64,000 nt of DNA. Origin: an uncultured bacterium. Its GTDB lineage: Bacteria > Chloroflexota > UBA5177 > JANWHV01. Position numbers and translations under genes: made by a program. This document shows, piece after piece, positions 8,871 to 43,637 of the stretch (its first letter is position 1; every line of letters starts with the position of its first letter). The stretch is taken from the NCBI GenBank assembly GCA_963729625.1, contig CAVSOU010000010.1:1024001-1088000 (forward strand), written 5' to 3'. The notes beneath the pieces were generated by a model. The model did no database searches, had not been told where the DNA came from, and saw only the letters and a program-made list of their open reading frames with translations.

Positions 8871-8887
8871 CGGTGTGTCTCTTGAAG

Positions 8888-15022: not shown

Positions 15023-16468
15023 ATGAAGAATGGTCGCGTGCGCGTCGGTCTGGCCGGCGCGATACATCCGAACATGCCCGGTGACGATGCCGCCTTGTAC
15101 GCACGAATGATAGCCGCTTTCGTCGAGATAGCCTGCGCGGAAGACTTCGACCTCTCGGTGTTCCAGAAGCCGCTCAGGAGCGAGGCCGACGGAGAGGAGG
15201 CGAGGGCCTTCATGGATGGCGAAGGTGCGGACTTCGTGCTGCTCTTCAACGCAAGCCTGCCCTACGGCCGCGTGATACTTCCCCTCGCCAGGGTACGAGG
15301 CCACATTGGCCTGTGGTCGGTGCCCGAGCCTACCACCTCTGGGGTGCTGCAGCTCAACTCGTTCTGCGGGACGAACATGCTCGGTGCGATCATCGCCAAC
15401 TACCTGCGCGAGTATGACATCCCCTTCAAGTGGTTCTATGGCATGCCCGACGAACCGAGATTCCGCGAGCGGCTCTCGGTAACCCTCGCCGCAATGCGAG
15501 CGATGAAGACGCTACGGACCGCGAGGATCGCGCAGATCGGCGGCCTTGCCGATGGCTTCGAAGACCTCTACATCGACGAGCGCGTCCTGGAGAAGAAATT
15601 CGGGACTCGATTGCAGACCCGGCACACGGTTGAGGAGATCGTGGCGCGAGCCGAAAAGCTTGACGCTGCCGCGGTCAAGGCGGAGATCGGGAGAATCGGT
15701 AAGGAAGGCAGCCTCGACCTTCGTGTCGTCAACCCGGGACACGCGGAAAAGTCGGCGAGAGTCTACCTTGCGCTCAAGGAATTCGCGCAGGAGAACGACT
15801 ACGACTCTCTTGCTCTTTCGTGTTGGGCCCGTTTCCAGAAGGTCTACGGCGTGGCGGTCTGCGCCGCCATGAGCCGGCTCAACGAGGAAGGGATTGCCAC
15901 GCCGTGTGAGGCCGACGTAACGAGCGCGGTGATGATGCTCGCGCTCAACGCGATGAACGGCAAGAAAGCCGCACTAAGCGACCTCGTGGCCTTTGACGAA
16001 TCGGACCAGAGCCTGAGCCTGTGGCACTGCGGAGTGGCTCCGGCGAGCTGGGCCGATTCAAGCGGTGTCCGCTGGGAGAATCACTTCAACATTGGGCACT
16101 ACGAGGGCTGCACATGGTGCGGAGACGGGCTGGTAGCCGATATGAGGTTCAAAGCCGGGCCAGTCACCGTCGCCACACTTGACAACGACTTCGACAACAT
16201 GCTCGTCCTTTCGGGCCAGATCGCGGCTGGCAAGCACGGATACGCCGGCTCTGGTGGGTGGGTGAAGGACCTCCGATTGAACGGAGAATGCGTGAGCATC
16301 GAGGATCTGATGAACACGATCGTCGTGGGAAGAGTGAACCACCACTACCCGAGCGCGTTCGGCGACCTTACAAACGAGCTCAACGAGTTTGCGGCATGGA
16401 AGGGGATCAGCCTCGTCGAGCGAGTGCCGTACAAGCCCTATGTGCAGGTGTCGAAGCGATCGAAGTGA
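15023..16468 (+). CDS. L-fucose/L-arabinose isomerase family protein
   Basis: LNSFCG, CW, CEAD, WHCG, NHH motifs. Confidence 0.85.
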   Translation: MKNGRVRVGLAGAIHPNMPGDDAALYARMIAAFVEIACAEDFDLSVFQKPLRSEADGEEARAFMDGEGADFVLLFNASLPYGRVILPLARVRGHIGLWSVPEPTTSGVLQLNSFCGTNMLGAIIANYLREYDIPFKWFYGMPDEPRFRERLSVTLAAMRAMKTLRTARIAQIGGLADGFEDLYIDERVLEKKFGTRLQTRHTVEEIVARAEKLDAAAVKAEIGRIGKEGSLDLRVVNPGHAEKSARVYLALKEFAQENDYDSLALSCWARFQKVYGVAVCAAMSRLNEEGIATPCEADVTSAVMMLALNAMNGKKAALSDLVAFDESDQSLSLWHCGVAPASWADSSGVRWENHFNIGHYEGCTWCGDGLVADMRFKAGPVTVATLDNDFDNMLVLSGQIAAGKHGYAGSGGWVKDLRLNGECVSIEDLMNTIVVGRVNHHYPSAFGDLTNELNEFAAWKGISLVERVPYKPYVQVSKRSK

Positions 16469-16485
16469 CCGAAACGGCAACGCCA

Positions 16486-16655
16486 GAGACTGTCTGCCTC
16501 GCAGCCGCTTGGGGCCAGGTGTCGAGTCCGACTCGGAGGTCCGCGCGGCGATGCCGGCCACGCCGGCGGTTGCCGCGCACGTCCTCCGAAGAGATCGACC
16601 GAACAACCTGCCGGTGGACGCGATGCCATCGTCGGTGACAAGGGACGGCAGTCTC
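16486..16655. ncRNA. Candidate 170-nt rod-like structured RNA
   Basis: Six nested complementary segments: GAGACTGTC/GGCAGTCTC, CAGGT/ACCTG, GTCGA/TCGAC, TCGGAGG/CCTCCGA, GCGCGGCGAT/GTTGCCGCGC, GCCGGC/GCCGGC. Confidence 0.3.
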
Positions 16656-16713
16656 GGACTGACCAGCCTTTGCCGGGCGATTTGAGAGCGTGCCGCGGGC
16701 GTCTCAGGAAGCG

Positions 16714-16742
16714 TTGACATGCGTCTAACGCCGTGCTACCAT
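16714..16742 (+). promoter_or_regulatory. Sigma70-type promoter of the Gfo/Idh/MocA operon
   Basis: TTGACA, 17 bp, TGC-TACCAT. Confidence 0.75.
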
Positions 16743-30100: not shown

Positions 30101-31382
30101 CGTCAGCTGTGAAAAGCCTGACAGGGAGCTTGTACGCCGTTGTGTGTTTGCAGTCGCCTTTCACTCGCTCTCGCCCGGGCGAGTAGGCACGCAGCGGATC
30201 GCGTACTCAATATCCGCTCATGGACTGGTTGTGCTGCGCACTGTTGTGACAGCCACTGCGCTCGTGCCCCGCATACAGGTAACGCCTGTCCAACTGCAGT
30301 TCTCCCCGGTGGCGGTAGGGCGCGCAGGTATACCGAACATCGTGACAGTCAAGAACGTTGGAAGCGACGTGTTGCGCGTTGCGACACTAAACGTGACTGG
30401 TGACGCTGTCCAGTTCGAAGTGAACGACGCGCCTTGCCATCATCCTCTCGAACCGCGAAACTCGTGCTCGGTCAGCATTCAGTTCGCGCCCAAGTCTCAG
30501 GGCCTGCACAGAGCGGCGCTGGAAATTACGAGCACGGCGCTCGGTGGTCCGGTAGTTGTCGGCCTTGTGGCAAGCGCCATGCCGCCCACTCAGACTCCAA
30601 CACAGACGCGCACGCCGACTGCAACGAGCACTCCGATAAAGACGCCGACACCGGCCCCCACTGCGACCAAAGCACCGACACTGGCTCCAACTGCAACCAA
30701 GGCGCCGACACAGGCTCCAACTGCGACCAAAGCACCGACACAGGCTCCAACTGCGACCAAGGCGCCGACACTGGCTCCGACCGCGACCAAAGCGCCGACA
30801 CTGGCTCCGACCGCGACCAAGACGCCGGCGCCGACAAAGGCTCCGACGTTCGCGGCCACTGTGACTGCGTCGCCGTCGCGAACCAGTACACCCATATCCA
30901 CACCCACGATCCGGCCGGCGGCGACACCTCGGGCCACCAGGGCGGCGCAACCGGCGACCCGTGTGCCGTCACCAACGGCTCAACCCGCTACGATCGCGCC
31001 CACGGCGAAGCGGAGCACCGGCGCGAACGGAAATGCCATCGCCACTCCACACAGTATTGTCGTACGAGTGGACCCGAATCCGGTTGCGTTCAGGCCGCAG
31101 CGAGTCGGCACCCGCAGCGCGCCAATGCTGGTGTTAATCGACAACACGGGCATAACGCCCATCTACCTGGGACAAGTGACAATCTCTGGGGCAGATACCG
31201 AGGACTTTGCAGTCCAGCGCGATCTCTGCAGTTCCAGCACCACGCCGCTTGCGCACAATGTGCCCTGCAGCCTGTACGTCGTCTTCACGCCGATCGTGCG
31301 CGGCCACCGCAGCGCCACATTGTATGTTCCGGGAGCTCAGCAGCAAATGAAGCTCGTGGTCCTCGAGGGAACAGCGCTGTAG
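27192..31382 (+). CDS. Transmembrane Ser/Thr kinase-like protein with multiple ASH/choice-of-anchor-D-like Ig domains
   Basis: Hanks kinase fold (HPNIV, DFG, YMAPE, SDLYSLG); one TM helix (VALAVGFVLLLLALLL); repeats of the type NxGxxPL...C...SCxxxVxFxP; Pro/Thr linker. Confidence 0.85.
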   Translation: MNLRVGSDVGPYTIESVVGAGSSATVYRARHRLHQRVDALKVFHDAVAADASFQARFYGVAEELARLKHPNIVQLFDVQAGDKFALAMEFVSGGTALDLLRRYPPGTLPLPVVLKLTTETADALEHAHRNGICHGDIDPGSILLSTSGAGSAVTYTAKLRDFGLAQLVSGTQASSKQLLPSSLTYMAPEHFNGAPCDAQSDLYSLGVVLYQLVVGEPPFEPVSWRVAKQQHLFADVPRPSDRRDAVPPALDAIILRLLAKQPEGRYPSADHVAVGLRRARLELTKHTRIVAAPQIVAPIENSPPVPAAIPPNQTTSAPTGPADGRETNVQMVSIDLEPQALGGSAVSAETPGVASDTPKTEIATPRAMGSADQRALEATFPSPGRSDMSIARPDVHAQTALLTNAGPAAATSEPDADGVGPDTAVTRLTVAAASAAHRDRLPMLYKVALAVGFVLLLLALLLQRLMPAGPSLSQPPDASFGAHLIGAIPAAEQLMTFSNSGGASLSFHLSIAPAGQKEFTVKPQDSHLCGMTALRQAGLIAAHSSCTLVVSFLPRSTGQAVAYLLVLSNAGERTVRLSGSGVGTLAVRYDAAELIAPTRALPSSAKVQFTLVNRSVAVLAIKASTSHTRDFSIVAGRGQCLMRRQGDSCTLALLFRPRVSGRRTGTLVLEEKFALAMQTITKIERLDLRGDGAVFTTASDGSAMASGLRFGRGDVGTSSLRAFTMTVAGITRLPKLTGSITGAKDFSIAAMSCGWISSRTASCTVRVRFLPTFGLGTTSSHVARTAELRLAVPALGWAYAVPLQGQLALPLADFGSPSTIALPAARVGTTTTPSTITVANRGTAPLLVARITHSTTDSFAVKSDCVGRHVLPGRSCRIEVDFRPQHAGLARFNLVVATNDPDLERRTASFTFNGIGVQLLTKLPPVIDLGGVHERATVRRTKTFTIAGIGGDFTVTPHAGGGDGPDYHASVSCEKPDRELVRRCVFAVAFHSLSPGRVGTQRIAYSISAHGLVVLRTVVTATALVPRIQVTPVQLQFSPVAVGRAGIPNIVTVKNVGSDVLRVATLNVTGDAVQFEVNDAPCHHPLEPRNSCSVSIQFAPKSQGLHRAALEITSTALGGPVVVGLVASAMPPTQTPTQTRTPTATSTPIKTPTPAPTATKAPTLAPTATKAPTQAPTATKAPTQAPTATKAPTLAPTATKAPTLAPTATKTPAPTKAPTFAATVTASPSRTSTPISTPTIRPAATPRATRAAQPATRVPSPTAQPATIAPTAKRSTGANGNAIATPHSIVVRVDPNPVAFRPQRVGTRSAPMLVLIDNTGITPIYLGQVTISGADTEDFAVQRDLCSSSTTPLAHNVPCSLYVVFTPIVRGHRSATLYVPGAQQQMKLVVLEGTAL
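30654..30830. repeat. 30-bp tandem repeat (about 6 copies) encoding APTATKAPT(L/Q)
   Basis: GCTCCAACTGCGACCAAAGCACCGACACTG-like units, in frame. Confidence 0.9.
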
Positions 31383-32818: not shown

Positions 32819-33242
32819 ACCCTATAGCTCGTTCATCCCCCTGCAGTATTTAGCCGGTCTCTCCGCCGTCGCGGGCGGCACGCCGGAGCTGCTCGTCGAC
32901 GGCTACAGTGATCGGTCTATCTATCCTATCCGTGCACGCGTACCGTGACCTTGCGTGCCCCAACCCACTACGCTGGCAGGAGCTTGGGGCCCGGCAGCCG
33001 CGCGACGCGATAGAGCGTGACTCGCGCTGAGCGAAAGCAGTGGATCTATCCGCGACCCGAACTTGCCATTGCTACCTCACGTGCCATTGGTATCGTCTGC
33101 GCACCTTCCCACAGACTGTAGCGGCGGTACCCGCCTGACAGATTGCGTACCGTGAATCCGTTCCGGGCCTGCAAGCGGACGGCCGCCAGGGCACACACAC
33201 ATTCACTTGGACTAATCATGCCGCAGGCCGTATCGTCAACGT

Positions 33243-34373
33243 ATGCGGATTAACAAGGCGCTCAGGCCTATCGCGGCCCCCTTGCAGGCCGGATCGGCAC
33301 ACACCGGCGACACCGTATCGGCCGCGGCTGCACGGCATTCTGCCGGACACGGCGGCCCCACCCGGACCAGACGTGAAGTGTTCGAGCGAATCGCGCCGGG
33401 TCTTGCGCTGTGTGCGGGTCTTGCCGGCATCGCAACCGGCCTTGGACACCTGGCGCCTGTGGTCGGGGCAGCCGTGATCGCCATTCTGCTCGGCATCGTG
33501 CTACGTAACACGCTTGACGTACCGGCACGGTGCGCGCCCGGCGTTCGAGTCTCAAGCAAGCTGGTGTTGCAGGTGGCCATCGCGGTGCTCGGTAGCAGCT
33601 TGAGCTTGCACCAGGTGTGGGCGACCGGCACCGGCTCACTCGCCGTACTGCTTGGCACGTTGATAGTTGGGATCCCCGTGATTTTGCTGCTTGGGCGTCT
33701 CCTCGGCGTCGGCAAGACCCTGACCCGTCTCATCGGGGTCGGTACCGGCATCTGCGGCGCCTCGGCTATTGGAGCGCTGGCGCCGATCCTCGGGGCAGAG
33801 GAAGGAGCTATCGCCTATGCCATCGCCACCATCTTCCTCTTCAACGTGGCCGGAGTACTGCTCTTCCCGCCCCTGGGCCGGCTGTTTGGCTTCTCCGCGC
33901 ACGGGTTCGGCCTTTGGGCCGGTACCGCCATCAATGACACGTCATCGGTTGTGGCCGCGGGCTACAGCTTCAGCACCGGCGCCGGCTCCTATGCAGTCAT
34001 CGTCAAGCTAACGCGCACGCTGATGATTGTGCCCGTGAGCTTAGTCTTTGCCGCGGTGGCAGCGCGGGAGCGGCGATTGCATCCATCGGGCGACAGTTTG
34101 CTGGCCGAACGAGCTCGTATGCCGCGGTTCATCTTCTGGTTTCTGGTGGCAAGCGCACTCAATACAGCGGGCGTGTTTGGCGCCTGGGGACCGCATGTGT
34201 TACCTGCGCTCGGCCAATTTCTCATCGTGGTCGCCCTGGCCGGGGTGGGCCTCTCCGCTGATCTGCGGGCCATGGCCCGGACTGGCTTCCGGCCCATCCT
34301 GCTCGGGTTAGCAGGATGGATGTGCGTGGCCACGCTGAGCCTGATGTTCCAGCACATCGCCGGCGCGGTGTGA
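33243..34373 (+). CDS. YeiH/PSE (putative sulfate exporter) family membrane protein
   Basis: GTGICGASAI, WAGTAINDTSSVVA, VKLTRTL motifs; true start may lie further downstream. Confidence 0.92.
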   Translation: MRINKALRPIAAPLQAGSAHTGDTVSAAAARHSAGHGGPTRTRREVFERIAPGLALCAGLAGIATGLGHLAPVVGAAVIAILLGIVLRNTLDVPARCAPGVRVSSKLVLQVAIAVLGSSLSLHQVWATGTGSLAVLLGTLIVGIPVILLLGRLLGVGKTLTRLIGVGTGICGASAIGALAPILGAEEGAIAYAIATIFLFNVAGVLLFPPLGRLFGFSAHGFGLWAGTAINDTSSVVAAGYSFSTGAGSYAVIVKLTRTLMIVPVSLVFAAVAARERRLHPSGDSLLAERARMPRFIFWFLVASALNTAGVFGAWGPHVLPALGQFLIVVALAGVGLSADLRAMARTGFRPILLGLAGWMCVATLSLMFQHIAGAV

Positions 34374-34615
34374 CGCATTCATGGGGCCGCCGTTCATGAG
34401 GCAACAAGCTACGCAGCGGAATTGGCAAAGGCCCTGGACACGGCGCTGGGAGCCGGCATTACAGTCAGAGCATCGGCCCACCTTACCATCGGCGGCACGT
34501 CGAAGCAAAGCACTTCGCATCGGCGGGTCGTCGCAGCGCAGCTTCGCCTTGGCAACAGCGCCAGAGCCATGGCCAGCAAATCGCGCACGACGGGGCTATC
34601 CAGCCTTGCGTCTGG

Positions 34616-34840
34616 CTACGTCGACGGCTTCGCCAGCAGTGCAGCGACTTTATCATTCTGGTTTGGGAACAGGTCGACCGGCACCGCTGCCTTGCCGTTG
34701 GCCGTACAGACTATATAGCGCGCACAGCCCATGAAGTTCCCTCTGCAGTACCGATTTCGCAGCATGTCGGACAGGGCGGGCATGTTCGCCATTCTGCCGC
34801 CAAAGAACAGGCAACCAGAGATCTTATCGCAATCAGCCAT
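34616..34840 (-). CDS. Small Cys-rich hypothetical protein (74 aa)
   Basis: GGAGGA RBS; pattern C-x5-C-xFF...YC-x6-CARY...PxDLFPNQ. Confidence 0.75.
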   Translation of the reverse strand: MADCDKISGCLFFGGRMANMPALSDMLRNRYCRGNFMGCARYIVCTANGKAAVPVDLFPNQNDKVAALLAKPST

Positions 34841-34942
34841 CGAATCCTCCCTCCTAACGAAGAGATCATAATCTCGACGATATGGTTGCGATAGGACCCG
34901 TTTGGGCCATGGATCCGCGATAGTCACGTTGTAATGTCCGGA

Positions 34943-35209
34943 TTAGAGCTCCGTCAACATGCTGATGCTGTTGCCGATCACTCGCCGCGCTTCCGCCGGA
35001 GGCAACGCCAAGCACTCGTCGAGCCCCGTTGCCACGATGGCTGCAGCCACTTTCTCAAGTGCGGCGCGCGCGGCCATCACCTGCACGAGAATTTGATCGC
35101 ACGGCCGATGATCGCCGACCATCTTGGCGATACCGCGCACCTGTCCCTCGATTCGCGCGAGGCGGTCCTGGACCGCCTGCGCGGCATCCGTGTCCAACTG
35201 TGTATCCAC
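34943..35209 (-). CDS. CsoR/RcnR-family repressor, CstR-like (Cys-only fingerprint)
   Basis: RLARIEGQVRGI, C.QIL.Q..A, ..GLDEC; the copper-ligand His is replaced by Gly. Confidence 0.9.
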   Translation of the reverse strand: MDTQLDTDAAQAVQDRLARIEGQVRGIAKMVGDHRPCDQILVQVMAARAALEKVAAAIVATGLDECLALPPAEARRVIGNSISMLTEL

Positions 35210-35243
35210 GGGCGTTCCTCTCGCTCTTTACCAACACTATATC

Positions 35244-35259
35244 CCATACCCCCGTATGG
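35244..35259. promoter_or_regulatory. CsoR/CstR-type operator (CCATACCCCCGTATGG)
   Basis: Inverted repeat CCATAC/GTATGG flanking a C-tract, upstream of the repressor gene. Confidence 0.75.
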
Positions 35260-35431
35260 TCTCAAGCACCGATCGGCACCTGCATGCAAGGCAATAGGTT
35301 TATCTCTCGCGCTTCAGCATCAGTTGCTTCGGCCCTTCGAGCAGCAAGATCGCTCCGGACAGGCTGGTATGGGGATGACGCGGAACGGGATGGCGGAAGG
35401 GCCGCATGCCCCACATGGTCATGGCATTCGG

Positions 35432-35447
35432 CCCTACCGGGGTATGG
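35432..35447. promoter_or_regulatory. CsoR/CstR-type operator (CCCTACCGGGGTATGG)
   Basis: Reverse complement CCATACCCCGGTAGGG matches the first operator at 14/16; upstream of tusA. Confidence 0.7.
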
Positions 35448-35534
35448 TAGCCATGCGCGATAATCGGTGCGTCAATCTCGCGCAAGGCCTGTCATTCCGC
35501 TTGCGGTGCAGCACGAAACGAAAGAAGGACGAAG

Positions 35535-35789
35535 ATGGCAACGGACCTCCTGCAAGGCATTCGAGTCGACAAAGTGGTGGACGCCCGCGGCACCTCGTGC
35601 CCTGGCCCGATCTTGGCCGCGAAGAAGGGCATGGCGGACGTGGCGATCGGCGGCGTCATGGAAGTGCTGGCCACCGACCGTGGCACGCAGAAGGATCTGC
35701 CTGCCTGGGCCAAGAAGATGGGCCATGAGTTTCTCGGTGTAGTGGAGGACGCCGGAACCTGGAAGCTCTACGTCAAGAAGCTGAAGTAG
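35535..35789 (+). CDS. tusA: Sulfurtransferase TusA family protein
   Basis: DARGTSCPGP motif; D..AWAKKMGHE. Confidence 0.93.
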   Translation: MATDLLQGIRVDKVVDARGTSCPGPILAAKKGMADVAIGGVMEVLATDRGTQKDLPAWAKKMGHEFLGVVEDAGTWKLYVKKLK

Positions 35790-36212
35790 ATGGCTGCTCC
35801 GGCAACCGCGGCGACCGCGCCAACGATATTGGTATTCTCCACGAACAACATCTCGGACCCCGGCATCGATCTGGCCGGCAGCGCGCACCTGCACTACTCG
35901 CCGAACGTCATGGTGATCAGCCTGCCGTGCACGAGCGGGATCAAGCCAAGCTGGATCCTGCACGCCATGCAGCAGGGCTGCGACGGCGTATTCATCGCCG
36001 CGGACGGAGACGAATGCGCGTATCTTCCCGACTGCTCGACGCGTGCCTCGCGTATCGTGACCGAGGCTCAGGCGTTGCTCAGGGAGCATGGGTACGAGGC
36101 GCGGCGCGTCCGCATGGGCGCCATCTGCTCGGTCTGCGCCGATCCGTTTGCTGCCTATATGCGCGAGTTCTCAGAGTCATTGGCAGAACTAGTGCCTTCC
36201 GGGAAGGAATAG
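35790..36212 (+). CDS. mvhD: MvhD-like iron-sulfur subunit with an atypical Cys pattern
   Basis: DLAG..LHYSPNV.VI.LPC, GCDGVFI, LL.EHG.E.RR typical of MvhD. Confidence 0.85.
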   Translation: MAAPATAATAPTILVFSTNNISDPGIDLAGSAHLHYSPNVMVISLPCTSGIKPSWILHAMQQGCDGVFIAADGDECAYLPDCSTRASRIVTEAQALLREHGYEARRVRMGAICSVCADPFAAYMREFSESLAELVPSGKE

Positions 36213-36215
36213 CCC

Positions 36216-38912
36216 ATGGACTATGACGCCCTGGTGGTCGGAGCCGGGATCGGCGGCATGGAATCGGCACTGAAGCTCGGCGACATGGGCTACAGCGTGT
36301 TGCTGATCGAGAAGGAAGCCAGCGTGGGCGGCAAGATGATCCTGCTCAGCAAGGTCTTCCCTACGCTGGACTGCGCCAGCTGCATTTCCACGCCGAAGAT
36401 GGGCGCCGCCATCCATCACCCCAACATAACAGTGCTCACTCACTCCGAAGTGGATCAGATCCGGCGAGATGATAGCGGCCACTTTCGAGCAAAGATCCGC
36501 CGGAAGCCAAGCTTCGTAGATGAGGCTTTGTGCACGGGCTGCCGCGACTGCGAGATGGCCTGCAGCGTATCAGCGCCCGACCAGTTCAACGCCGGTATGG
36601 TGTCGCGCCGCGCAGCCTACATCGCATTCCCGCAGGCGGTACCGAAGAAAGCGGTGATCGAACGAGCAGGCACCTCACCCTGCACCTTTGAATGTCCTGC
36701 CGGCATCAAGGCGCACGGCTACGTCTCCCTGGTGCGCAGCGGCGAATACGAGAAGGCCTTCGCCCTCGTGCTCGAAGCCACTCCCCTGGTCGGAAGCTTG
36801 GGCCGTGCCTGCTACGCGCCCTGCGAGAGCGCCTGCAGCCGGTCAAGACTTGAAGGACCACTCGCTATCCGGCGCTTGAAGCGCTTCATCGCCGACACGC
36901 ATTACTGCGGGCGCGCGGAAACTTTGGTGTCAGCGCCGCCGCCGAATGGCAAGCGGGTAGCGGTCGTCGGCTCCGGCCCCGCTGGCCTGACTGCGGCCTG
37001 GCAATTGGCGCGGCAAGGCCACGGCGTGAAGATCTTTGAAGCCGCGCCGGAGCCCGGCGGCATGTTGCGCCTGGCCATCCCCGACTACCGGTTGCCGAGC
37101 ACGGTCGTCGAGCAGGATATCGCGAATGTGACCGCCATCGGTGTGGAGATCGCCACGAATACGCGCGTGGAGAATCTGGAGGATCTCAAAACCCAGGGTT
37201 ACGACGCCATCCTGCTGGCGACCGGCACACCTCGCGCCGTCGGCTTGCAGGCTCCCGGCGGCGATCTGCCGGGCATCACCAGCGCCCTCGCCTTCCTTCG
37301 TGCCGTCAAGCTCGGCGAACCCATGGATTATCACGGCAAGACCGTGACCGTGATCGGCGGCGGCAACGTAGCTATCGACGCCGCGCGCAGCGCCCGCAGA
37401 CTGGGCGCGGCGGCTGTGCACATGGTCAGCTTGGAATCGCGGCCGGAAATGCCCGCGCACACATTCGAGGTTGAGGAGGCGCTGGCGGAAGGCATCGTCC
37501 TGCACAACTCCTGGGGCGTCCGGCAGTTCCGCGGCGAGAACGCGGTGGAAGGCCTCGAGCTGCGCCGCTGCACGACCGTATTCGACGCCGATCGACGCTT
37601 CAACCCTCAGTATGACGAGAGCACATTCCGGGATCTCCCCAGCGATGTGGTGATCCTGGCTGTAGGCATGAGCGCGGATACGATTGCCTTCGCCTCGTCG
37701 CTTGGGATTAACCGGAACAAGACGCTTCAGGCAGATCCAGGCACCTTGCAGACAACTTTGCCCTACGTCTTTGCGGCCGGCGACGTGGTGTCCGGTCCGT
37801 CGATGATTACCAGTGCGGTCGGCCAAGGCCGGCGTGCTGCCTTTATGATCGACCGCTGGCTGCAGGGCCGAGAGCTGGACGTCAAGGCCTTCGAGACGAT
37901 GCTGCCCGTCGTGGAGCAGATTGACGTGCTGCGGCGGCAAGTCCATTTCGCGCGTCGCGAGCCGCTCCCCGGGGTTGCGGTTGAAGGCGCACCGTCCGAC
38001 ATGGCGGAGCTGGAACCTCCGCTCACCGAGGAGGAAGCGCGCTACAGCGCCGGACGCTGTCTGGACTGCGGCATCTGCTCGGAGTGCCATCAGTGCCTGG
38101 ATGCCTGCCCCGCGGGCGCCATCGACCTGAACATGCCTGAACGCGAGTTCGAGGCCGAGGTGGGCACGGTGGTGCTCGCCACCGGGTTCAGTCTCTTCCC
38201 GGCTGACCTCAAGCCACAGTACGGCTTCGGAAGATTCAAGAACGTGATCACCGGCATGCAGATGGACCGCCTGCTGGCACCCACCCGCCCCTACAACTCC
38301 GTGCTGCGGCCGGGTGACGGCAAGGTGCCCGATCGCATCGGCTTCATCATGTGCACCGGCTCGCGCGACAAGACGGTGGGCAACCCCCTCTGTTCCAAAA
38401 TATGTTGCATGTATTCGATCAAGCAGAATCAGCTGATTATGGGCGCCCTGCCGCTGGCGGACGTCACCGTGCACTACATCGACATGCGCGCGGTGGGGAA
38501 TGGGTACGACGAGTTCTACGAGCAGGCCCGTGCCATGGGCGCCAACTTCATCAAGGGGCGGGTAGCCGGGATCACGGAGAAGGAAGATGGCAACCTGATC
38601 CTGCGCTACGAGGACGTCGACAATGGCGGCGTCCTGGCAGAGGCCGAATACGACCTCGTCGTACTGGCGGTGGGCGTGCAGCCGAATCTGGATATTCGCC
38701 GGCTCTTCCCGGGCTCGGATCTGGCCCCGGACGAGTTCGGGTATGTCGACGAACCCGACGAGGATCTCAATCCCGGCTGGACGGGGACGCCGGGCCTCTA
38801 TGTGGCCGGCGCCGCGTCAGGCGCAAAGGATATCCCGGATTCCATTTTGCATGCGGGGGCGGCCGTAGCGCAAGCGGCGGCGCATCTGGAAAGGGCGAGG
38901 GTGCGCGCATGA
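36216..38912 (+). CDS. hdrA: HdrA-like flavoprotein with inserted GltD-like NAD(P)H module (HdrL-type)
   Basis: GAGIGG, FPTLDCASC, ferredoxin motifs, PCTFECPA/GRACYAPCESAC, GSGPAG, GGGNVAIDAAR, CTGSRD, CSKICC. Confidence 0.9.
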   Translation: MDYDALVVGAGIGGMESALKLGDMGYSVLLIEKEASVGGKMILLSKVFPTLDCASCISTPKMGAAIHHPNITVLTHSEVDQIRRDDSGHFRAKIRRKPSFVDEALCTGCRDCEMACSVSAPDQFNAGMVSRRAAYIAFPQAVPKKAVIERAGTSPCTFECPAGIKAHGYVSLVRSGEYEKAFALVLEATPLVGSLGRACYAPCESACSRSRLEGPLAIRRLKRFIADTHYCGRAETLVSAPPPNGKRVAVVGSGPAGLTAAWQLARQGHGVKIFEAAPEPGGMLRLAIPDYRLPSTVVEQDIANVTAIGVEIATNTRVENLEDLKTQGYDAILLATGTPRAVGLQAPGGDLPGITSALAFLRAVKLGEPMDYHGKTVTVIGGGNVAIDAARSARRLGAAAVHMVSLESRPEMPAHTFEVEEALAEGIVLHNSWGVRQFRGENAVEGLELRRCTTVFDADRRFNPQYDESTFRDLPSDVVILAVGMSADTIAFASSLGINRNKTLQADPGTLQTTLPYVFAAGDVVSGPSMITSAVGQGRRAAFMIDRWLQGRELDVKAFETMLPVVEQIDVLRRQVHFARREPLPGVAVEGAPSDMAELEPPLTEEEARYSAGRCLDCGICSECHQCLDACPAGAIDLNMPEREFEAEVGTVVLATGFSLFPADLKPQYGFGRFKNVITGMQMDRLLAPTRPYNSVLRPGDGKVPDRIGFIMCTGSRDKTVGNPLCSKICCMYSIKQNQLIMGALPLADVTVHYIDMRAVGNGYDEFYEQARAMGANFIKGRVAGITEKEDGNLILRYEDVDNGGVLAEAEYDLVVLAVGVQPNLDIRRLFPGSDLAPDEFGYVDEPDEDLNPGWTGTPGLYVAGAASGAKDIPDSILHAGAAVAQAAAHLERARVRA

Positions 38913-40648
38913 GCGGCAAGAGGATAGGCGTCTACGTCTGTCACTGCGGCGGTAACATCTCCGATTACGTGGACACTGATCAGGTAGTGGCCGAAGCCCT
39001 GGCGGAGGAGGACGTGGTGATTGCCAGGTCCGCCATGTTCACGTGCTCGGACGCCACCCAGCAGGAGATTGTCAACGACATCCAGGAGCACCAGCTCGAC
39101 GGCCTGGTCGTGGCTTCCTGCTCGCCCAAGCTGCACACCTTCACCTTTCGCGAAGTCGCCAGACGTGCCGGTCTGAATCCCTTCCAGTACACCCAGGTGA
39201 ATATCCGCGAGCAGTGCTCGTGGGCGCACACGGACGACAAGGATGGGGCTACCTGCAAGGCGGGCTGCCTGGTGCGGGCAGGGATCGGCCGCACGCGGTT
39301 ATCGGAGCCATTGGAGCCGCTCGTGGTGCAAACGGAAGGGAGCGTCCTGGTGGTCGGTGGCGGCGTCGCTGGACTGCGCGCGGCCATTGGTCTGGCCGAG
39401 ATCGGGCTCTCGGTGGTCCTGGTGGAAAAGGAGCCCCGGCTTGGCGGCTGGGTCGGCGCTTTCGGCGACATGTATCCGCATGGCAAGAACGGCAGAGCCC
39501 TGATCGAGCATCTCGTGGCGGAGATTCGCAAGCGGCCGGAGATCACTATCTTCACCAATGCCGAGGTGGTGAATAAGTCGGGCACGCTGGGCAACTACAA
39601 CGCAACCATCGACGTACACGGAGAGTCGCCGGCATCGATTGAGGTGCAGGTGGGCGCGATTGTCGTCGCTACCGGCTTCGACGCCTACACGCCTGAAGCA
39701 GGCGAATACGGCTACGGCATCGATGGCGTGGTCACGCTGCCCGAGTTTAAGAAGCTGACCGACCAGTCGCAAGGCCCATTGATGCGTCACGGCAAGCCGA
39801 TTAAGTCCATCGTCTACATCTACTGCGTCGGTAGCCGGCAGGGCTCGAACGGCAGCCCGGGTAACCCTGGCTGCTCGCGCTACTGCTGCACTGCCGCCGT
39901 GCATGCCTCGCTGACCGTGGCGGCCAAGGACATCAACGCGCGCCAGTACCACCTGTACCGCGATATGCGCACCTACGGCAGGTACGAGACACTCTACAGC
40001 GAGTCGCGCGAGAATGGATCGCTCTATCTTAAGTTTGCCGACGACACGCCGCCGACGGTAAGTCGGGACAGCAGTACCGGCAGGCTCACCGTAACGGTAA
40101 GAGATCTCCTGACCGGTGGTGAAGAGATCGCCATTCCGGCAGAGCTTGTGGTCCTGGTCACCGGCATGATGCCGCGCCCCGTCGAGGAACTCGTCGATGT
40201 GCTCAAGCTTCCGCTGGGCAAAGACGGCTTCTTCCATGAGATTCACCCCAAGCTACGGCCGGTCGAGACCGTGGTTGACGGCGTCTTAATCTGCGGCACC
40301 TGTCAAGGACCCAAGAACGCGGCTGAAAGCGTGGCCTCCGCACTGGCCGCGGTGACCCAAAGCGCGGCAATGCTGAAGAAAGGGTATGCCGAGCTGGATC
40401 CACAGGTCGCGCGCGTCAATGCCGAGGTTTGTATCTGGTGCGGCAAATGTCAGGAGGCCTGCCCGTATGGCGCGGTAGGCCTGCTCCATCTCGACGGCAG
40501 AGATAGTGCCGTGGTCGACGCTGCCGGCTGCAAGGGCTGCGGCGGCTGCGTGCCTGTCTGCCCGAACGATGCCATCGACCTCCTGGGTTACAGCGATGCC
40601 CAGGTCAGGGCCATGATCGATGGACTGCTGAAGGAGCGCGTGTCATGA
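38909..40648 (+). CDS. hdrA: HdrA-like FAD/Fe-S subunit with C-terminal 2x[4Fe-4S] domain
   Basis: CHCGGNI, NIREQCSWAH, GGGVAG, CVGSR, CSRYCC, HPKLRPVE, two CxxCxxCxxxCP. Confidence 0.92.
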   Translation: MSGKRIGVYVCHCGGNISDYVDTDQVVAEALAEEDVVIARSAMFTCSDATQQEIVNDIQEHQLDGLVVASCSPKLHTFTFREVARRAGLNPFQYTQVNIREQCSWAHTDDKDGATCKAGCLVRAGIGRTRLSEPLEPLVVQTEGSVLVVGGGVAGLRAAIGLAEIGLSVVLVEKEPRLGGWVGAFGDMYPHGKNGRALIEHLVAEIRKRPEITIFTNAEVVNKSGTLGNYNATIDVHGESPASIEVQVGAIVVATGFDAYTPEAGEYGYGIDGVVTLPEFKKLTDQSQGPLMRHGKPIKSIVYIYCVGSRQGSNGSPGNPGCSRYCCTAAVHASLTVAAKDINARQYHLYRDMRTYGRYETLYSESRENGSLYLKFADDTPPTVSRDSSTGRLTVTVRDLLTGGEEIAIPAELVVLVTGMMPRPVEELVDVLKLPLGKDGFFHEIHPKLRPVETVVDGVLICGTCQGPKNAAESVASALAAVTQSAAMLKKGYAELDPQVARVNAEVCIWCGKCQEACPYGAVGLLHLDGRDSAVVDAAGCKGCGGCVPVCPNDAIDLLGYSDAQVRAMIDGLLKERVS

Positions 40649-40893
40649 GCACGACGAGCCGGGATGTGCGCGAAATCATCCGCGAGGAGCCCCTGATGCG
40701 GGACCGCATCCTGCAGGTGCTGGAAGCGGGGCCGAAGACCGTGCCGGAGATCGCGGCGGCGATCGGCTACCCGGACCACGAGGTCATGTATTGGGTGATG
40801 GGGATGCGCAAGTACGGCCAGGTGACTCCGCTCCCCGACGCCACCGACGAGGGGTTCTACCAATACCAGGCGGTGGAGGGGAACCGGATATGA
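40645..40893 (+). CDS. Small winged-helix protein within the hdr-like operon
   Basis: GPKTVPEIAAAIG...MGMRKYG; start and stop overlap both neighbours. Confidence 0.75.
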   Translation: MSTTSRDVREIIREEPLMRDRILQVLEAGPKTVPEIAAAIGYPDHEVMYWVMGMRKYGQVTPLPDATDEGFYQYQAVEGNRI

Positions 40894-41195
40894 CCACGCT
40901 GCTGAACCCCGACCTGGCGCGGCAGATCTGGCCGGGCGATGAGCTGAATGCCGATGCCTGCATGAACTGCGGCGTGTGCGGCGCCGTCTGCCCGATGGGC
41001 ATCGCACTGCTGCCCAGAAGGCTGTTCCGGTACGTGCTTCTGGGCATGGAGGACCGCGTGCTGCAGGAGACGGAGAATGTGTTCTCGTGTCTGTTGTGCA
41101 GACTGTGCGAGGTCAATTGCCCGGCGGACGTCCATATCGCGGAGAACATGCGTGCCGTGCGCCACTATATCAACACGCACGCTGTCAGAAGCTAG
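40890..41195 (+). CDS. HdrC-like 2x[4Fe-4S] protein
   Basis: CMNCGVCGAVCP and CLLCRLCEVNCP. Confidence 0.9.
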   Translation: MTTLLNPDLARQIWPGDELNADACMNCGVCGAVCPMGIALLPRRLFRYVLLGMEDRVLQETENVFSCLLCRLCEVNCPADVHIAENMRAVRHYINTHAVRS

Positions 41196-41205
41196 GAGAG
41201 TGCCA

Positions 41206-42174
41206 ATGCCACTACCGCCGGGCGACATCATAGGCATCCTGTCGGATAACCTGCGTCTGCGTAGGTCGGTGCTGCCGATCTCTACCCGGAGCGTCACGCG
41301 GTGGGCGCGTGGGCTGAACCTGCCACGCGGCGGAGAGACCGTTCTCTATACCGGGCAGATGTACCAGCTTATCCCCTACATCGAGCAGATGGTGCAGATG
41401 CAGGAGCGGGTGGCAGATACATGGCTGGCTGGCTTCACCCGGCTGGGCCGGCGCCTGAATAAAGTGGTCAACATCACGGCGTTCATGGGCCGCCCAGGCG
41501 CGGATGCGCGGGCGGCCAACGACGGCGTCTTGCACAACGTGGTTTCGCTGCTCCGGCAAGCGGGAGTCGCCTTCGGCTATCTCTTCGAGGACGACCTCTA
41601 TTCCGGGGCACTTGCCTACGACCTGGGCACCGACGAAGCTTTTGGCATGCAGGCGCGACGAGTGGCTCGCATGCTCAAGAAGCATGGCGTGCGAAACGTG
41701 ATCACAGTCGACCCGCACACGACCAATATGCTTCGCTCCGTCTATCCGAGGTTCGTCAAAGGATTCGACGTGAGCGTGCGCAGCTACCTGGAAGTGCTGG
41801 CGGACAAGGGCATGCGGCCGCAGACATCGCTCTCCAGCCGGTTGGCGATTCACGATTCCTGTGTCTATGCCCGATACGAGGGTGTGATAGGGCAACCCCG
41901 CGCGCTGCTGGAGCAAGCCGGTGTCACCATCGTCGAGCCGGATAATGCCGGCCGCTTCACCTGGTGTTGCGGTGGCCCATTGGAGTCTCTGTACCCGCGT
42001 AAATCATTGGCCACCGCCCAGAAGCGCGTGGAACAGCTCCGTCAGGCCGCACCGGAGGCGGTGACGATGTGTCCCCTGTGCCTGGTGAATCTGCAAAAGG
42101 CGGCGGGCCACACACTGCGCCTCACAGACATCTCCGAGCACCTGCGACGGGCGTATACAGCTCAAGCCATCTGA
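41206..42174 (+). CDS. HdrB/HdrD-like CCG-domain Fe-S protein
   Basis: C-terminal HDSC, CCGG, CPLC; N-terminal CCG domain degenerate (DDLYSG, VDPH). Confidence 0.87.
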   Translation: MPLPPGDIIGILSDNLRLRRSVLPISTRSVTRWARGLNLPRGGETVLYTGQMYQLIPYIEQMVQMQERVADTWLAGFTRLGRRLNKVVNITAFMGRPGADARAANDGVLHNVVSLLRQAGVAFGYLFEDDLYSGALAYDLGTDEAFGMQARRVARMLKKHGVRNVITVDPHTTNMLRSVYPRFVKGFDVSVRSYLEVLADKGMRPQTSLSSRLAIHDSCVYARYEGVIGQPRALLEQAGVTIVEPDNAGRFTWCCGGPLESLYPRKSLATAQKRVEQLRQAAPEAVTMCPLCLVNLQKAAGHTLRLTDISEHLRRAYTAQAI

Positions 42175-42191
42175 AGTCGAAGGAGAAGAAG

Positions 42192-42668
42192 GTGCGCACA
42201 GACAAGAAGACATTGATCGTCTTCAGCGGCGACCTCGACCGAGCGCTCGCGGCATTCATGATTGCCAACGGCGCCGCCGCTATGGGTGACGAAGTAACCA
42301 TGTTTTTCACCTTTTGGGGCCTGAATATCCTGCGCAAGGCCAAGAAGGTGAAGGCCAAAAAGACGTTCCTGCAGGCAATGTTCGGCTGGATGATGCCCCG
42401 CGGCCCCAGCCGGCTGGGCCTCTCCAAGATGAACTTCGGCGGCATGGGCGCCATGATGATGAAGAAGGTGATGAAGGGGCAGAACATCATGTCGCTCGAG
42501 GACCTGCTCGCTGCGGCGAAGGACCAGGGCGTCAAGCTGGTGGCCTGCACCATGTCGATGGATGTGATGGGCATCAAGGAAGAGGAGTTGATCGACGGCC
42601 TGGAGTTCGCCGGCGTGGCCAGCTACCTTGGCGAGGCGGACGAGGCCAACGTCAACCTGTTCATCTAG
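42192..42668 (+). CDS. DsrE2/DsrE-F-like sulfur carrier
   Basis: FSGDLD, FFTFWGL, ACTMSMDVMG, GVASYL. Confidence 0.93.
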   Translation: MRTDKKTLIVFSGDLDRALAAFMIANGAAAMGDEVTMFFTFWGLNILRKAKKVKAKKTFLQAMFGWMMPRGPSRLGLSKMNFGGMGAMMMKKVMKGQNIMSLEDLLAAAKDQGVKLVACTMSMDVMGIKEEELIDGLEFAGVASYLGEADEANVNLFI

Positions 42669-42728
42669 TCGCGCAGCGCAAGCGTCGACGCCAGCATATT
42701 TGCGGCACGAGGGCAGGGAAGCACACAC

Positions 42729-43040
42729 CTACTTCATCGAGGTGTTCTCGTAGAAGCTCGCGCTGGGACAATGGCAGCCAATGGTCGGAAGCACAACCTC
42801 GTCGCCGGGACCTAACGTAGCAACCTGCCAGGTGCCGTCGACGAGTCGCGATCTGACTTCGACAGACACGCGGTCCGTGGCGATCAGCGCGTAGGTGCCC
42901 AGGCTCGTCAGGGCGCGATACATCCCGAACTTATCGCCCTGGTCGTAGTCGACCGTCTTGGGCGAGAGGGCCTCCACGACGACGCGGGGATGGCGGATAA
43001 ACTGGTGGGCTCCGCGAACACACGGCGGGGCGTTCAGCAT
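42729..43040 (-). pseudogene. Uma2 (DUF820) endonuclease, C-terminal fragment
   Basis: P.VVVEALSP.T..YD.GDK...Y motif present; no N-terminal half in frame. Confidence 0.65.
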
Positions 43041-43181
43041 GAAGAATGGCCTGCTCGACCGCGAGCTGTGGCCTTTGCCAAGGGTAGTGCATGTTCGGTA
43101 GGCTGGATGACGTCAGCCTGAAGGAGGATAGCCGGACTGCTGTGAGCCTGCAGCATGAGCGTGGCGGGAGGAATTGCACAG

Positions 43182-43637
43182 ATGGACGATGCTGAGAAGA
43201 CGTGGCATACCAAGTGTGCCAAAGAACTTTTCAACCACTCTTGGGATCTCCTTGACCAGGCTAGCCGCACCGATCAGGAAGACCACGACCTTCTCCACGC
43301 CGCGTTCGCCTCGCGCTATCATTGGGGCGTCGTCGGCACCGAGGAGAACTGGATCCTTGGCGACGCGCACATCGCCCGTGTCGCCGCCCACCTGGGCCAC
43401 AGCGCGTTGTCCCTGCATTACGCAGCTCGGGCCCTCGACGACACGTACGCGCGTGGCTGGCGAGACTACCGTCTCGCATCGGCCCATGAGACGATGGCGC
43501 GGGCACACAGCGCCGCGGGGAACTCGGTCGAGCGTGACCGCCACCTTGCGCTTGCCCGCGATGCTCTCGATCTCGTCGACGACCCAGAGGATCGAGAGAT
43601 CATCGCCGGGCAGATTGACTCGGTCCCTGTGGGCTGA
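43182..43637 (+). CDS. Hypothetical helical (TPR-like) protein
   Basis: GGAGG RBS; FNHSWDLL, HAAFASRYHW, AHETMARA. Confidence 0.8.
   Translation: MDDAEKTWHTKCAKELFNHSWDLLDQASRTDQEDHDLLHAAFASRYHWGVVGTEENWILGDAHIARVAAHLGHSALSLHYAARALDDTYARGWRDYRLASAHETMARAHSAAGNSVERDRHLALARDALDLVDDPEDREIIAGQIDSVPVG

Follow-up and report, generated by a model that had tools for sequence, protein, structure and literature searches.

We analysed a 64,000-nucleotide stretch of DNA (the window) from an uncultured bacterium of the Chloroflexota (assembly GCA_963729625.1, contig CAVSOU010000010.1, positions 1,024,001 to 1,088,000) and report on an operon of eight genes at window positions 35535-42668 on the forward strand. 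The genes are translationally coupled, with 4-nt overlaps or gaps of 0-17 nt, and follow the order tusA-mvhD-hdrL-hdrA2-wHTH-hdrC-hdrB-like-dsrE2. They form a real, widely distributed and well-defined cluster within the HdrA/Qmo kind, and the recurrence of the gene order in 30 other loci is far more than chance would produce. The link of the cluster to carrier-bound sulfur is persuasive but unproven. Judged from sequence, the eight genes probably specify an enzyme of cytoplasmic sulfur metabolism that is widespread and has yet to be named. The reading that we prefer, with somewhat less than even confidence, takes the operon to be the soluble form of a family of TusA-linked HdrA heterodimers, widespread and as yet without a name, that is built like Qmo and acts on carrier-bound sulfane sulfur. 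Flavin-based bifurcation specifically seems much less likely than this reading taken as a whole. Open reading frame (ORF) calls and Pfam and NCBIfam matches bear out the tightly coupled eight-gene set and its parts as listed in the initial annotation, which was made from the letters of the window alone.

We searched for homologues of HdrL and retrieved thousands of relatives (7020 of 8000 scored candidates at E ≤ 1e-3). The best 120 share 66-100% identity, are 891-1002 aa long and are annotated as "heterodisulfide reductase subunit A" or "FAD-dependent oxidoreductase". Taking one genome per species, 594 stretches encode an HdrL relative; we kept the best 80 and searched them with the window proteins using tblastn. 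The same cluster was present in 12 of these 80 loci, corresponding to 11 clusters since two loci (L012 and L015; loci are numbered with an L) are contigs of one metagenome-assembled genome (MAG). The other 68 loci represent other HdrA contexts. The MAGs are labelled Bacillota, Thermoleophilia, Gaiellales, Actinomycetes, Acidimicrobiaceae, Chloroflexia, Gemmatimonadetes and "proteobacterium", and the carriers span at least four phylum labels (Actinomycetota, Chloroflexota, Bacillota and Gemmatimonadota). The gene of the 82-aa winged-helix protein was used as a marker within the window's own phylum, where it was found in 22 of 401 sampled genomes (about 5%) from 14 of 217 genera, and in one of four other genomes of the window's genus. 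Three genomes (G079, G187 and G388) have two marker matches each. We took 20 marker neighbourhoods, one of which (L118) is the same contig as L002, giving a total of 30 other loci (11 + 19).

The composition of these 30 loci is nearly constant. The first cluster gene is tusA in every one of them, and this linkage to the hdr genes confirms that the cluster is a self-contained, conserved unit, as initially proposed. All 30 also encode MvhD (frameshifted in L010, partial in L113), the winged-helix protein and an HdrC-like dicluster module. Genes of both the HdrL type and the HdrA2 type are present in 29 loci, the exception being L113, a remnant that lacks both. Within this remnant (G348:C3:30000-49000, around 8800-10800), a dsrE2-like gene, tusA, a partial mvhD, the winged-helix gene and a QmoC-like gene persist. 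Some other copies are broken: tusA, mvhD and hdrL of L010 (6296-11508) and hdrL of L124 (4931-7619) are split into several frames, either through assembly frameshifts or because the copies are decaying. L010 also has a second pair of winged-helix and HdrC-like genes (16261-16740, reverse strand; 36% and 35% identity) 3 kb downstream of its main cluster.

We distinguished three forms of the cluster. Form A, which is that of the window, ends with HdrC and the HdrB-like protein and comprises 13 other loci in which HdrB was detected, plus L005, which is cut after hdrC. In form B (12 loci and the remnant L113), the winged-helix gene is followed by a gene for a 390-434-aa protein with an N-terminal two-cluster domain and a membrane domain. 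Pfam placed Fer4 families in the terminal proteins of L001, L006, L008, L009, L109, L112, L115 and L117, and Nitrate_red_gam in that of L006. Form C (L125-L127) likewise has a QmoC-like ending; it lacks the GltD insert described below and has a short HdrA of 448-536 aa and a long HdrA of 707-721 aa. Hydropathy analysis of seven QmoC-like proteins predicted 5-7 transmembrane segments in six and three in that of L125, and the six have conserved histidines at equivalent positions, which the protein of L125 lacks. The proteins of L109 and L126 match the NCBIfam qmoC model end to end, at 204 and 198 bits, under its cut-off of 300. For L114, L116, L119 and L015, the QmoC-like ending was assigned just from a low-identity HdrC match together with the lack of an HdrB match. 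Directly after the QmoC-like gene, four form-B loci (L008:13136-14794, L109:11172-12348, L115:6357-7367 and L117:11137-12321) encode a hemerythrin-domain protein and a PadR-family protein, a pair that may be an oxygen- or iron-sensing add-on.

The cluster encodes two HdrA proteins. HdrL (36216-38912, forward strand; 898 aa; 3-nt gap after mvhD) has an HdrA thioredoxin-reductase core with FPTLDC (residues 48-53) and a CxGSRD..CSxxCC motif. Pfam assigned Fer4_20 to residues 153-229 and Pyr_redox_2 to residues 247-538, and NCBIfam identified a GltD-type block (PRK12771, 465 bits, residues 144-649) with methanogen-HdrA models matching on both sides of it. The insert is an NfnB/GltD-type NAD(P)H-FAD-2x[4Fe-4S] module nested in the inserted-ferredoxin region. 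PDB comparisons gave the same partition, with the HdrA chains 8rvv and 5odc matching at 344-350 bits over residues 616-896 and the NfnB-like chains 9bov, 9n5u, 8oh5, 4ylf and 5jca aligning from residue 150-154 to residue 550-627. HdrL has neither an N-terminal domain nor a C-terminal ferredoxin domain. HdrA2 (38909-40648, forward strand; 579 aa; overlapping hdrL by 4 nt) begins with an N-terminal cluster domain that contains CHCGGNI (residues 11-17) and in which C11, C13, C46 and C71 are invariant. The thioredoxin-reductase core follows, and then a C-terminal 2x[4Fe-4S] ferredoxin domain (Pfam Fer4_21, residues 501-557). HdrA2 lacks FPTxDC and the inserted ferredoxin domain; the NCBIfam HdrA models match its residues 5-234 and 242-576, with about 90 model positions skipped. 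The two proteins were initially described as complementary HdrAs with split motifs, and this division holds reciprocally across the relatives. FPT[LM]DC is present in 27 of 28 HdrL-type proteins (the exception, in L124, is a truncated ORF) versus none of 25 HdrA2-type proteins, and CxCGGN is present in all 24 HdrA2-type proteins of the clusters versus none of the 28 of the HdrL type.

A quick maximum-likelihood tree of the flavin core that the HdrAs share comprised 143 rows, with SH-aLRT as the only branch support and midpoint rooting for drawing. Forms A and B group together in their HdrL-type cores (26 rows, support 99), and the clade grows to 29 rows (support 100) when its sister, form C, is included. 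The pattern is the same for the HdrA2-type cores, with 27 rows (support 100) for forms A and B and 30 rows (support 97) with form C as sister. The two clades are separate and well supported, and the canonical HdrA of the same genome (L081) falls outside both and groups with those of L011 and L016. The GltD insert is not unique to the TusA-linked family because the HdrAs of L011 and L016, which group with the canonical HdrA, have one too; this agrees with the independent insertions reported for archaea (PMC12054007). The nearest relatives of each clade are the first or second halves of tandem or fused HdrAs (L017, L021, L063, L073, L077 and L065), several of them on long branches, which makes their exact placement unsure. 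Parts resembling HdrL and HdrA2 occur in single ORFs of 1474 aa (L073:7001-11380) and 1507 aa (L077:7001-11440), which points to the two proteins working together. In both of these loci, the fused ORF is followed by mvhD, and there are further hdrA and hdrC genes but no tusA. The tree and motifs indicate that HdrL and HdrA2 are a co-evolving pair. Branches of form A and form B are intermixed in the tree; either the terminal module would have been swapped more than once, or the tree lacks resolution at that point.

MvhD (35790-36212, forward strand; 140 aa) follows tusA with a 0-nt gap. It is a FlpD-type [2Fe-2S] adaptor (Pfam FlpD/MvhD, 105 bits) that matches the NCBIfam models for VhuD and for the HdrA2 C-terminal region. 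HdrC (40890-41195, forward strand; 101 aa; overlapping the winged-helix gene by 4 nt) consists of one 2x[4Fe-4S] domain with two CxxCxxCxxxC motifs, whose residues C24, C27, C30, C34, C67, C70, C73 and C77 are invariant, and is without the long C-terminal extension of the methanogen HdrC models (144-198 positions). The winged-helix protein (40645-40893, forward strand; 82 aa; overlapping hdrA2 by 4 nt) contains no cysteine and has a weak Pfam HTH_20 match. Its conservation is high, with a mean column identity of 60% across 31 sequences, and its AlphaFold2 model is a minimal winged helix (predicted local distance difference test score, pLDDT, 90.4). Foldseek searches with this model retrieved SmtB/ArsR and MarR DNA-binding domains (TMq 0.6-0.69), and the family profile matches NmtR at E 0.003. 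The family is small, with 498 representatives of 50%-identity clusters at E ≤ 1e-3, and 225 at E ≤ 1e-10, of 1.84 billion. In all three forms its gene lies between the long HdrA gene and the HdrC-type module. This fixed position, together with translational coupling on both sides, suggests a stoichiometric subunit or adaptor, although a dedicated regulator is equally possible.

Two sulfur carriers bracket the operon. TusA (35535-35789, forward strand; 84 aa; Pfam TusA, 82 bits) has a single cysteine, Cys22, in a CPGP motif; among solved chains it is closest to 1pav, 1jdq and E. coli TusA 3lvj. DsrE2 (42192-42668, forward strand; 158 aa; GTG start; 17-nt gap after the hdrB-like gene) is a DsrE2B-type carrier of the DrsE_2 family (PF13686, 226 bits) with a single cysteine in ACTMS. 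It matches the NCBIfam equivalog model SulfCarrDsrE2 (NF047629) at 96.5 bits, under the cut-off of 210, and its nearest solved chains are 3pnx (121 bits) and 2qs7 (67 bits). Its gene is the sole DrsE_2 gene found in the genome, where no YeeE/YedE was found. The initial annotation tied both carriers to the hdr genes, and this holds throughout for tusA but only in part for dsrE2, which tblastn detected at ≥ 60% query coverage in 16 of the 30 other loci, or in 18 when partial Pfam matches (L115 and L125) are included. By tblastn, dsrE2 was detected in 9 of 14 form A loci versus 4 of 12 form B loci.

The HdrB-like protein (41206-42174, forward strand; 322 aa; 10-nt gap after hdrC) has exactly one Pfam CCG match, at residues 214-296. 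In all 14 aligned sequences C219, C254, C255, C289 and C292 are invariant, making one complete CCG motif, and the N-terminal lobe has no conserved cysteine; its invariant motifs include D169-P-H171-T-T. The protein had been described as retaining only one intact CCG domain, which agrees with these results. The family profile had a single PDB match at E ≤ 1, to 9ojn, the EtfD of Mycobacterium smegmatis (8e-17), and no match to HdrB. Foldseek ranked the AlphaFold2 model (pLDDT 79.6) in the same way, with EtfD 9ojn first (E 2e-11, TMq 0.66), followed by LutA (4e-7) and HdrB 5odc_B (E 2e-6, TMq 0.53). The noncubane cluster D2 of EtfD is bound by C637, C672, C673, C709, C712 and His583, with the histidine in place of the bridging cysteine of Hdr, "making it non-catalytic"; cysteines for the other cluster, D1, are missing from the EtfD relatives FadF and DgcB (PMC13083937). 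In a pairwise alignment, the DPHT of the HdrB-like protein faces C581-P-H583-C584 of EtfD and its five cysteines face those of D2, so that all six D2 ligands are kept (C219, C254, C255, C289, C292 and H171). From sequence and model, the protein looks like a single-cluster module of the EtfD-D2 type. The proposal that the CCG domain reduces the persulfide is weakened by this ligand set and by the retention of tusA in forms that lack a CCG protein. We note that the EtfD likeness is evidence against CCG persulfide reduction and no proof, because "non-catalytic" is itself a structural inference.

We also considered how the cluster may be regulated. A CsoR/RcnR-family repressor gene (34943-35209, reverse strand; 88 aa; Pfam PF02583, 73 bits) is divergent from tusA. 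Its product has Cys37 and Cys66, with glycine at position 62 and hence no histidine four residues before Cys66, and its matches to the NCBIfam RicR, RcnR and FrmR models are all far under cut-off. Two cysteines without the ligand histidine may amount to a CstR-like pattern. The 325-bp divergent region contains two copies of CCATACCCC(C/G)GTA(T/G)GG, the sole two matches to this motif in 64 kb. One is the operator-like 16-mer CCATACCCCCGTATGG at 35244-35259 (forward strand), beside the start of the csoR-like gene, and the other is at 35432-35447 (reverse strand), about 88 bp upstream of tusA. The sites were spotted by eye, as their 6-nt arms were missed by the inverted-repeat finder, and a shuffle test of the motif is circular because the motif was derived from its own two sites. 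L110, from the same genus, has related palindromes at two sites, one some 87 bp ahead of tusA and the other immediately behind dsrE2 (4 strand-matches versus 0.36 expected; no shuffle reached 4). The second of these precedes genes for OsmC-like, rhodanese and DUF302 proteins (L110:6525-7981, reverse strand) that follow dsrE2 there and are absent from the window. L002 also has a CsoR-like gene, 3 kb upstream, yet the operator motif has no match there even when three mismatches are allowed. When positions 33000-43300 were scanned for sigma-70 sites and terminators, there were fewer matches than in shuffled sequence and no site before tusA.

Other loci have ArsR-family genes near the cluster. They lie directly upstream of tusA in L003, L004, L007, L008 and L010, near tusA on the opposite strand in L005, L010 and L122 (in L122 1.5 kb upstream, ahead of dsrE2), and two genes upstream of tusA in L127; in L001 and L124 they follow the cluster. 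The ArsR proteins of L003, L004, L007, L010 and L122 share a cysteine in the ELCKAL helix and another in ACxLxR; those of L008 and L127 have the second only. The two-cysteine pattern is putatively that of the SqrR/BigR-type persulfide sensors. CsoR and ArsR are the two known families of such sensors, and the flanking regulators and sites, circumstantial evidence though they are, jointly hint that reactive sulfur species control the cluster. In this genome, the divergent CsoR/CstR-like repressor would probably control the operon through the two operator-like sites. A cysteine-rich ORF of 74-103 aa (34616-34927, reverse strand) comes directly after the CsoR-like gene and shares its strand. Neither Pfam nor NCBIfam models match it, and the closest Atlas clusters are unnamed proteins of about 72 aa, mainly from Thermodesulfobacteriota and Bacillota (score 0.95). 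We rejected this ORF as a member of the system because it is absent from the 30 other loci.

In the reading that we prefer, HdrL and HdrA2 would form a heterodimeric flavin core with jointly one copy of each HdrA domain, to which MvhD, the winged-helix protein and the two-cluster HdrC would attach. NAD(P)H would reduce the flavin of the GltD-type module, from which electrons would pass through the nested clusters to the HdrL flavin, the same route as has been proposed for archaeal type III HdrA (PMC12054007). MvhD and the HdrA2 ferredoxin domain may act as further electron ports. HdrC would wire the core to the terminal module, either an EtfD-like HdrB with one noncubane cluster or, in the sister loci, a QmoC-like haem-b quinone module. 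The complex would act on sulfane sulfur on TusA, plus DsrE2 where present, probably with a net reduction of protein persulfide, polysulfide or thiosulfonate to sulfide. Of the non-redox proteins, TusA alone is present in all forms, and we therefore take TusA-bound sulfane sulfur as the substrate; DsrE2, whose gene accompanies form A more often, would be an additional carrier. Because tusA is kept in forms without a CCG protein, the CCG site cannot be where any sulfur chemistry shared by the whole family takes place. Our guess for such a site, and it is purely that, would be the invariant FPTLDC cysteine beside the flavin. The HdrC/HdrB arm here, and the quinone in the sister loci, would supply a second electron port and with it a geometry for bifurcation or confurcation. 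A stronger version holds that the family is a new class of bifurcating or confurcating enzyme, in which TusA-bound sulfane sulfur forms one arm in place of ferredoxin or the heterodisulfide, NAD(P)H enters through the NfnB-like module, and the other arm is a quinone or an EtfD-like port. This version we regard as doubtful.

Several points weigh against the action of the complex on carrier-bound sulfur. The second carrier gene, dsrE2, was detected in about half of the loci, a count on which the contig edges that end several loci have a bearing. The 16 loci that encode a QmoC-like protein in place of a CCG protein still have tusA. The best match of the HdrB-like protein is EtfD, an electron-transfer flavoprotein (ETF):menaquinone oxidoreductase, and the D2 histidine deemed to make that cluster non-catalytic is retained; by analogy the CCG site may be an electron port and not the sulfur-reducing site, since the whole EtfD D2 ligand set is kept. 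A CsoR-like gene is near the cluster in just two other distinct loci (L002/L118 and L123), and the likeness of the cysteine patterns to those of CstR, SqrR and BigR is putative. Simple NAD(P)H persulfide reductases exist, which leaves the need for so complex a machine unexplained. By our estimate, the potential of the persulfide couple may be too low to drive ferredoxin reduction from NAD(P)H.

The alternative that survives best is a general electron-transfer or bifurcation hub connecting NAD(P)H, ferredoxin and a terminal port (a quinone or an ETF-like flavoprotein) that carries out no sulfur chemistry itself. The two carriers would then have side roles, such as cluster repair, regulatory tasks or the supply of another enzyme. 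Such a hub would account for the EtfD-like terminal protein with its "non-catalytic" ligands and for the exchange of this module with a QmoC homologue. Qmo itself just hands electrons to a separate reductase (PMC10504309), and Fe-S assembly genes (NifU, NUBPL-type ParA and Nitro_FeMo-Co) adjoin L004 and L124. However, tusA is the first gene of all 30 loci and directly adjoins mvhD in the window, the window and the scanned flanks of the other loci yielded no ETF genes, and no partner reductase is encoded in the loci. The paired cysteines of the flanking ArsR and CsoR regulators and the rhodanese gene adjoining L110 also count against it. We consider such a hub unlikely.

Alternatively, the complex could run in the oxidative direction, with sulfane sulfur delivered by TusA and DsrE2 being oxidised and electrons passing to NAD(P)+ and to a quinone or other acceptor, in the manner of sHdr with non-orthologous parts. 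The ArsR-type regulators presumably resemble repressors of the sHdrR/SoxR type. The succession of hdrA, a small ORF, hdrC and hdrB together with tusA and dsrE2 also recalls shdrA-H-C2-B2 with TusA and DsrE2 (PMC11094781). We find oxidation quite improbable, however, as the locus has no LbpA or lipoate genes, the sole HdrB-like protein has one cluster and the HdrAs are far from sHdrA 6tjr; moreover, no oxygen-adding or hydrolytic partner is encoded, and no sulfite-handling gene was identified in the conserved core.

True membership of sHdr, Apr-linked QmoABC, FlxABCD-HdrABC or MvhAGD-HdrABC is very improbable. All subunits bar the winged-helix protein, TusA and DsrE2 have homologues in these systems, yet the defining features of the systems were looked for and are missing, aprA and dsrA are absent over cut-off, and the genome has a separate canonical locus whose HdrA falls outside both cluster clades. 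Reduction of another chalcogen (selenium or tellurium species) on a TusA/YedF-like carrier is the least credible alternative, despite a weak YedF match of TusA (28 bits versus cut-offs of 79-110 for the NCBIfam selenium-metabolism models), partial matches of HdrL, HdrC and the HdrB-like protein to NF045663 ("diclust_near_Sec") and a TehB-like methyltransferase gene adjoining L002, because TusA models score higher, the scanned flanks contain no selenium genes, and DsrE2 and the rhodanese point to sulfur.

Upstream of the operon are a YeiH-family membrane protein gene on the forward strand (33243-34373; Pfam PF03601, 235 bits; TIGR00698, 124 bits, under its cut-off of 232.6) and then, on the reverse strand, the cysteine-rich ORF and the CsoR/RcnR-family gene. 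YeiH had been suggested as the transporter of the system, but no YeiH match occurs in any of the 30 other loci, and we rejected it as a member. A 103-aa Uma2-family ORF (putative restriction endonuclease; 42729-43040, reverse strand) abuts the end of dsrE2; it matches just positions 89-160 of the 172-position profile and is probably a truncated gene. The remaining genes are for transport and catabolism of sugars, peptides and amino acids, and for a large Ser/Thr protein kinase (27192-31382, forward strand; 1396 aa) with a long C-terminal array of immunoglobulin-like (ASH/HYDIN/DUF1573-type) domains. Pfam scans of 56 window ORFs, 13 of them without any Pfam match, detected no hydrogenase, Fdh, Apr/Dsr, Flx-like or lipoate-binding gene, in line with the absences noted initially. 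Among the sequencing runs listed, three DNA runs of one study, and no RNA run, contain parts of the stretch (shares 0.34, 0.06 and 0.05).

HdrA-type complexes are common in bacteria that neither form methane nor use CoM-S-S-CoB, and what their substrate is has long been an open question. The TusA-linked family offers a concrete candidate, with tusA first in every locus examined, its own entry for NAD(P)H and a swappable terminal module. If the family handles protein-bound sulfur, many apparently plain heterotrophs would join cytoplasmic sulfur cycling or the defence against reactive sulfur. If the bifurcating reading is true, it would reveal a hidden energy-conserving reduction of elemental sulfur (S0), polysulfide or thiosulfate in heterotrophs without Dsr and Apr from soils, sediments and several phyla, and would give many orphan HdrA complexes of non-methanogens a physiological substrate. 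The present result also corrects an annotation error that is easily made, as the genes now go under "heterodisulfide reductase subunit A" or "FAD-dependent oxidoreductase".

We compared the cluster with the known systems that it resembles. The gene sets of sHdr, shdrC1B1AHC2B2 or shdrC1B1AHB3-etfAB-emo, include two HdrB-type units (PMC11094781), whereas the window has one hdrC and one hdrB-like gene and neither etfAB nor emo. sHdrA 6tjr (349 aa) scores 135 bits against HdrL and 110 bits against HdrA2, versus 344 and 400 bits for the methanogen HdrA 5odc. We searched for LbpA and found no GCV_H-family gene in the window; the two GCV_H matches of the genome, which is 87% complete, are on contigs C6 and C11. 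These two matches (G000:C6:12761-13111 and C11:146669-147019) have the same score (134 bits) and the same frame length (188 aa), and may represent a duplicated stretch in the assembly, for which contamination is estimated at 5.24%. The cluster is not sHdr because its HdrAs are of the methanogen type, it has one HdrB and one HdrC, and no LbpA gene is nearby. The likeness consists of TusA and DsrE2 at the locus, the small ORF between hdrA and hdrC-hdrB, and ArsR-type regulators nearby (PMC11094781). In contrast to sHdr, the cluster has MvhD, an NAD(P)H module and a single one-cluster HdrB.

The resemblance to Qmo is closer. Both have two different HdrA paralogues side by side, an MvhD-type module and an HdrC-type dicluster module, and QmoB carries the MvhD-like domain as a C-terminal fusion. 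Qmo ends in a haem-b membrane subunit in Gram-negative sulfate reducers and in soluble HdrCB in Gram-positive ones, and "type II" Qmo and QmoAB-HdrCB variants are mentioned (PMC10504309); the TusA-linked loci show the same alternative endings, with a haem-b membrane subunit in the sister loci and soluble HdrCB in the window. Unlike Qmo, the window has a soluble 101-aa HdrC and an HdrB-like protein and no QmoC, which unites an HdrC-like dicluster part with a haem-b membrane part. It has a separate 140-aa MvhD and a GltD/NfnB module in the short HdrA; moreover, TusA is always first and the winged-helix gene is always present. The best aprA match in the genome scores 19.5 bits against a cut-off of 642, and none of 21 other carriers exceeds the cut-off; dsrA is over cut-off in one of the 21 and not in this 87%-complete genome. 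To judge from its genes, the cluster is built like Qmo, yet is not an Apr-linked Qmo, because neither this genome nor the 21 carriers have aprA over cut-off. The claim that the system is distinct from Qmo therefore stands as far as the Apr link is concerned, but not for the architecture, which is Qmo-like and ends in a QmoC homologue in the sister loci.

MvhAGD-HdrABC (5odc) provides the best match for both HdrA cores and MvhD and shares the HdrB fold. In that system one full-length HdrA has the N-terminal, inserted-ferredoxin and C-terminal ferredoxin domains, HdrB has two CCG motifs with two noncubane clusters, and the [NiFe] hydrogenase MvhAG is encoded alongside. The cluster splits the HdrA domains over HdrL and HdrA2, has an HdrB with one cluster and has no hydrogenase at the locus. 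The same genome has, on contig C7 (354680-361140; L081:8680-15140), a canonical set of hdrC, hdrB (two CCG domains), hdrA (664 aa), mvhD, mvhG, mvhA and hycI. Upstream of this set are hypF-, hypD- and hypE-like genes, and downstream is a second [NiFe] hydrogenase with a HoxU-like subunit. On this gene content, the organism has a methanogen-style Mvh-Hdr besides the window cluster, and since that locus is complete and canonical, the window cluster is an addition to it and not a degenerate copy. Bit scores, gene set and the separate C7 locus thus uphold the distinction from sHdr and from methanogen Hdr. EtfD resembles a single part of the cluster: the HdrB-like protein aligns with its CCG region and, like FadF and DgcB, lacks the D1 cysteines, but is soluble (322 aa), has no membrane or haem domain and has its dicluster part in a separate 101-aa protein.

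The closest published precedents for the short HdrA are HdrL and the archaeal type III HdrA. HdrL, an HdrA/GltD fusion encoded beside MvhD, was defined in D. autotrophicum HRM2, where one locus has an HdrL-HdrA tandem (PMC2702500). In S. fumaroxidans, the HdrABC/HdrL proteins (Sfum_0819-0824) appeared solely when sulfate was supplied, and DsrC was suggested as the protein that they reduce (PMC5947623). GltD-bearing "type III" and tandem "type II" HdrAs are catalogued for methane-cycling archaea (PMC12054007). As in these proteins, the GltD-type NAD(P)H domain is located at the inserted-ferredoxin region and mvhD is adjacent. The accessible portions of the three sources describe the HdrL clusters and type III HdrAs without TusA, DsrE2 or a winged-helix gene, and the hosts are sulfate reducers or methane-cycling archaea, whereas the hosts of the TusA-linked cluster are mostly without Dsr and Apr. 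Literature searches, for which subscription journals were largely out of scope, returned no paper describing a TusA-linked hdrL-hdrA2 cluster; the broader ones led to papers on sHdr, Acidithiobacillus and methanogens only, and the text of an HdrA preprint (10.1101/2024.09.26.615249) contains no TusA, DsrE or GltD; within that scope, the cluster is undescribed, as had been claimed. The core idea of the initial annotation stands: an NAD(P)H- and sulfur-carrier-linked complex of the Hdr type that these descriptions do not include, and that shares its NAD(P)H module with HdrL and type III HdrA and its overall build with Qmo.

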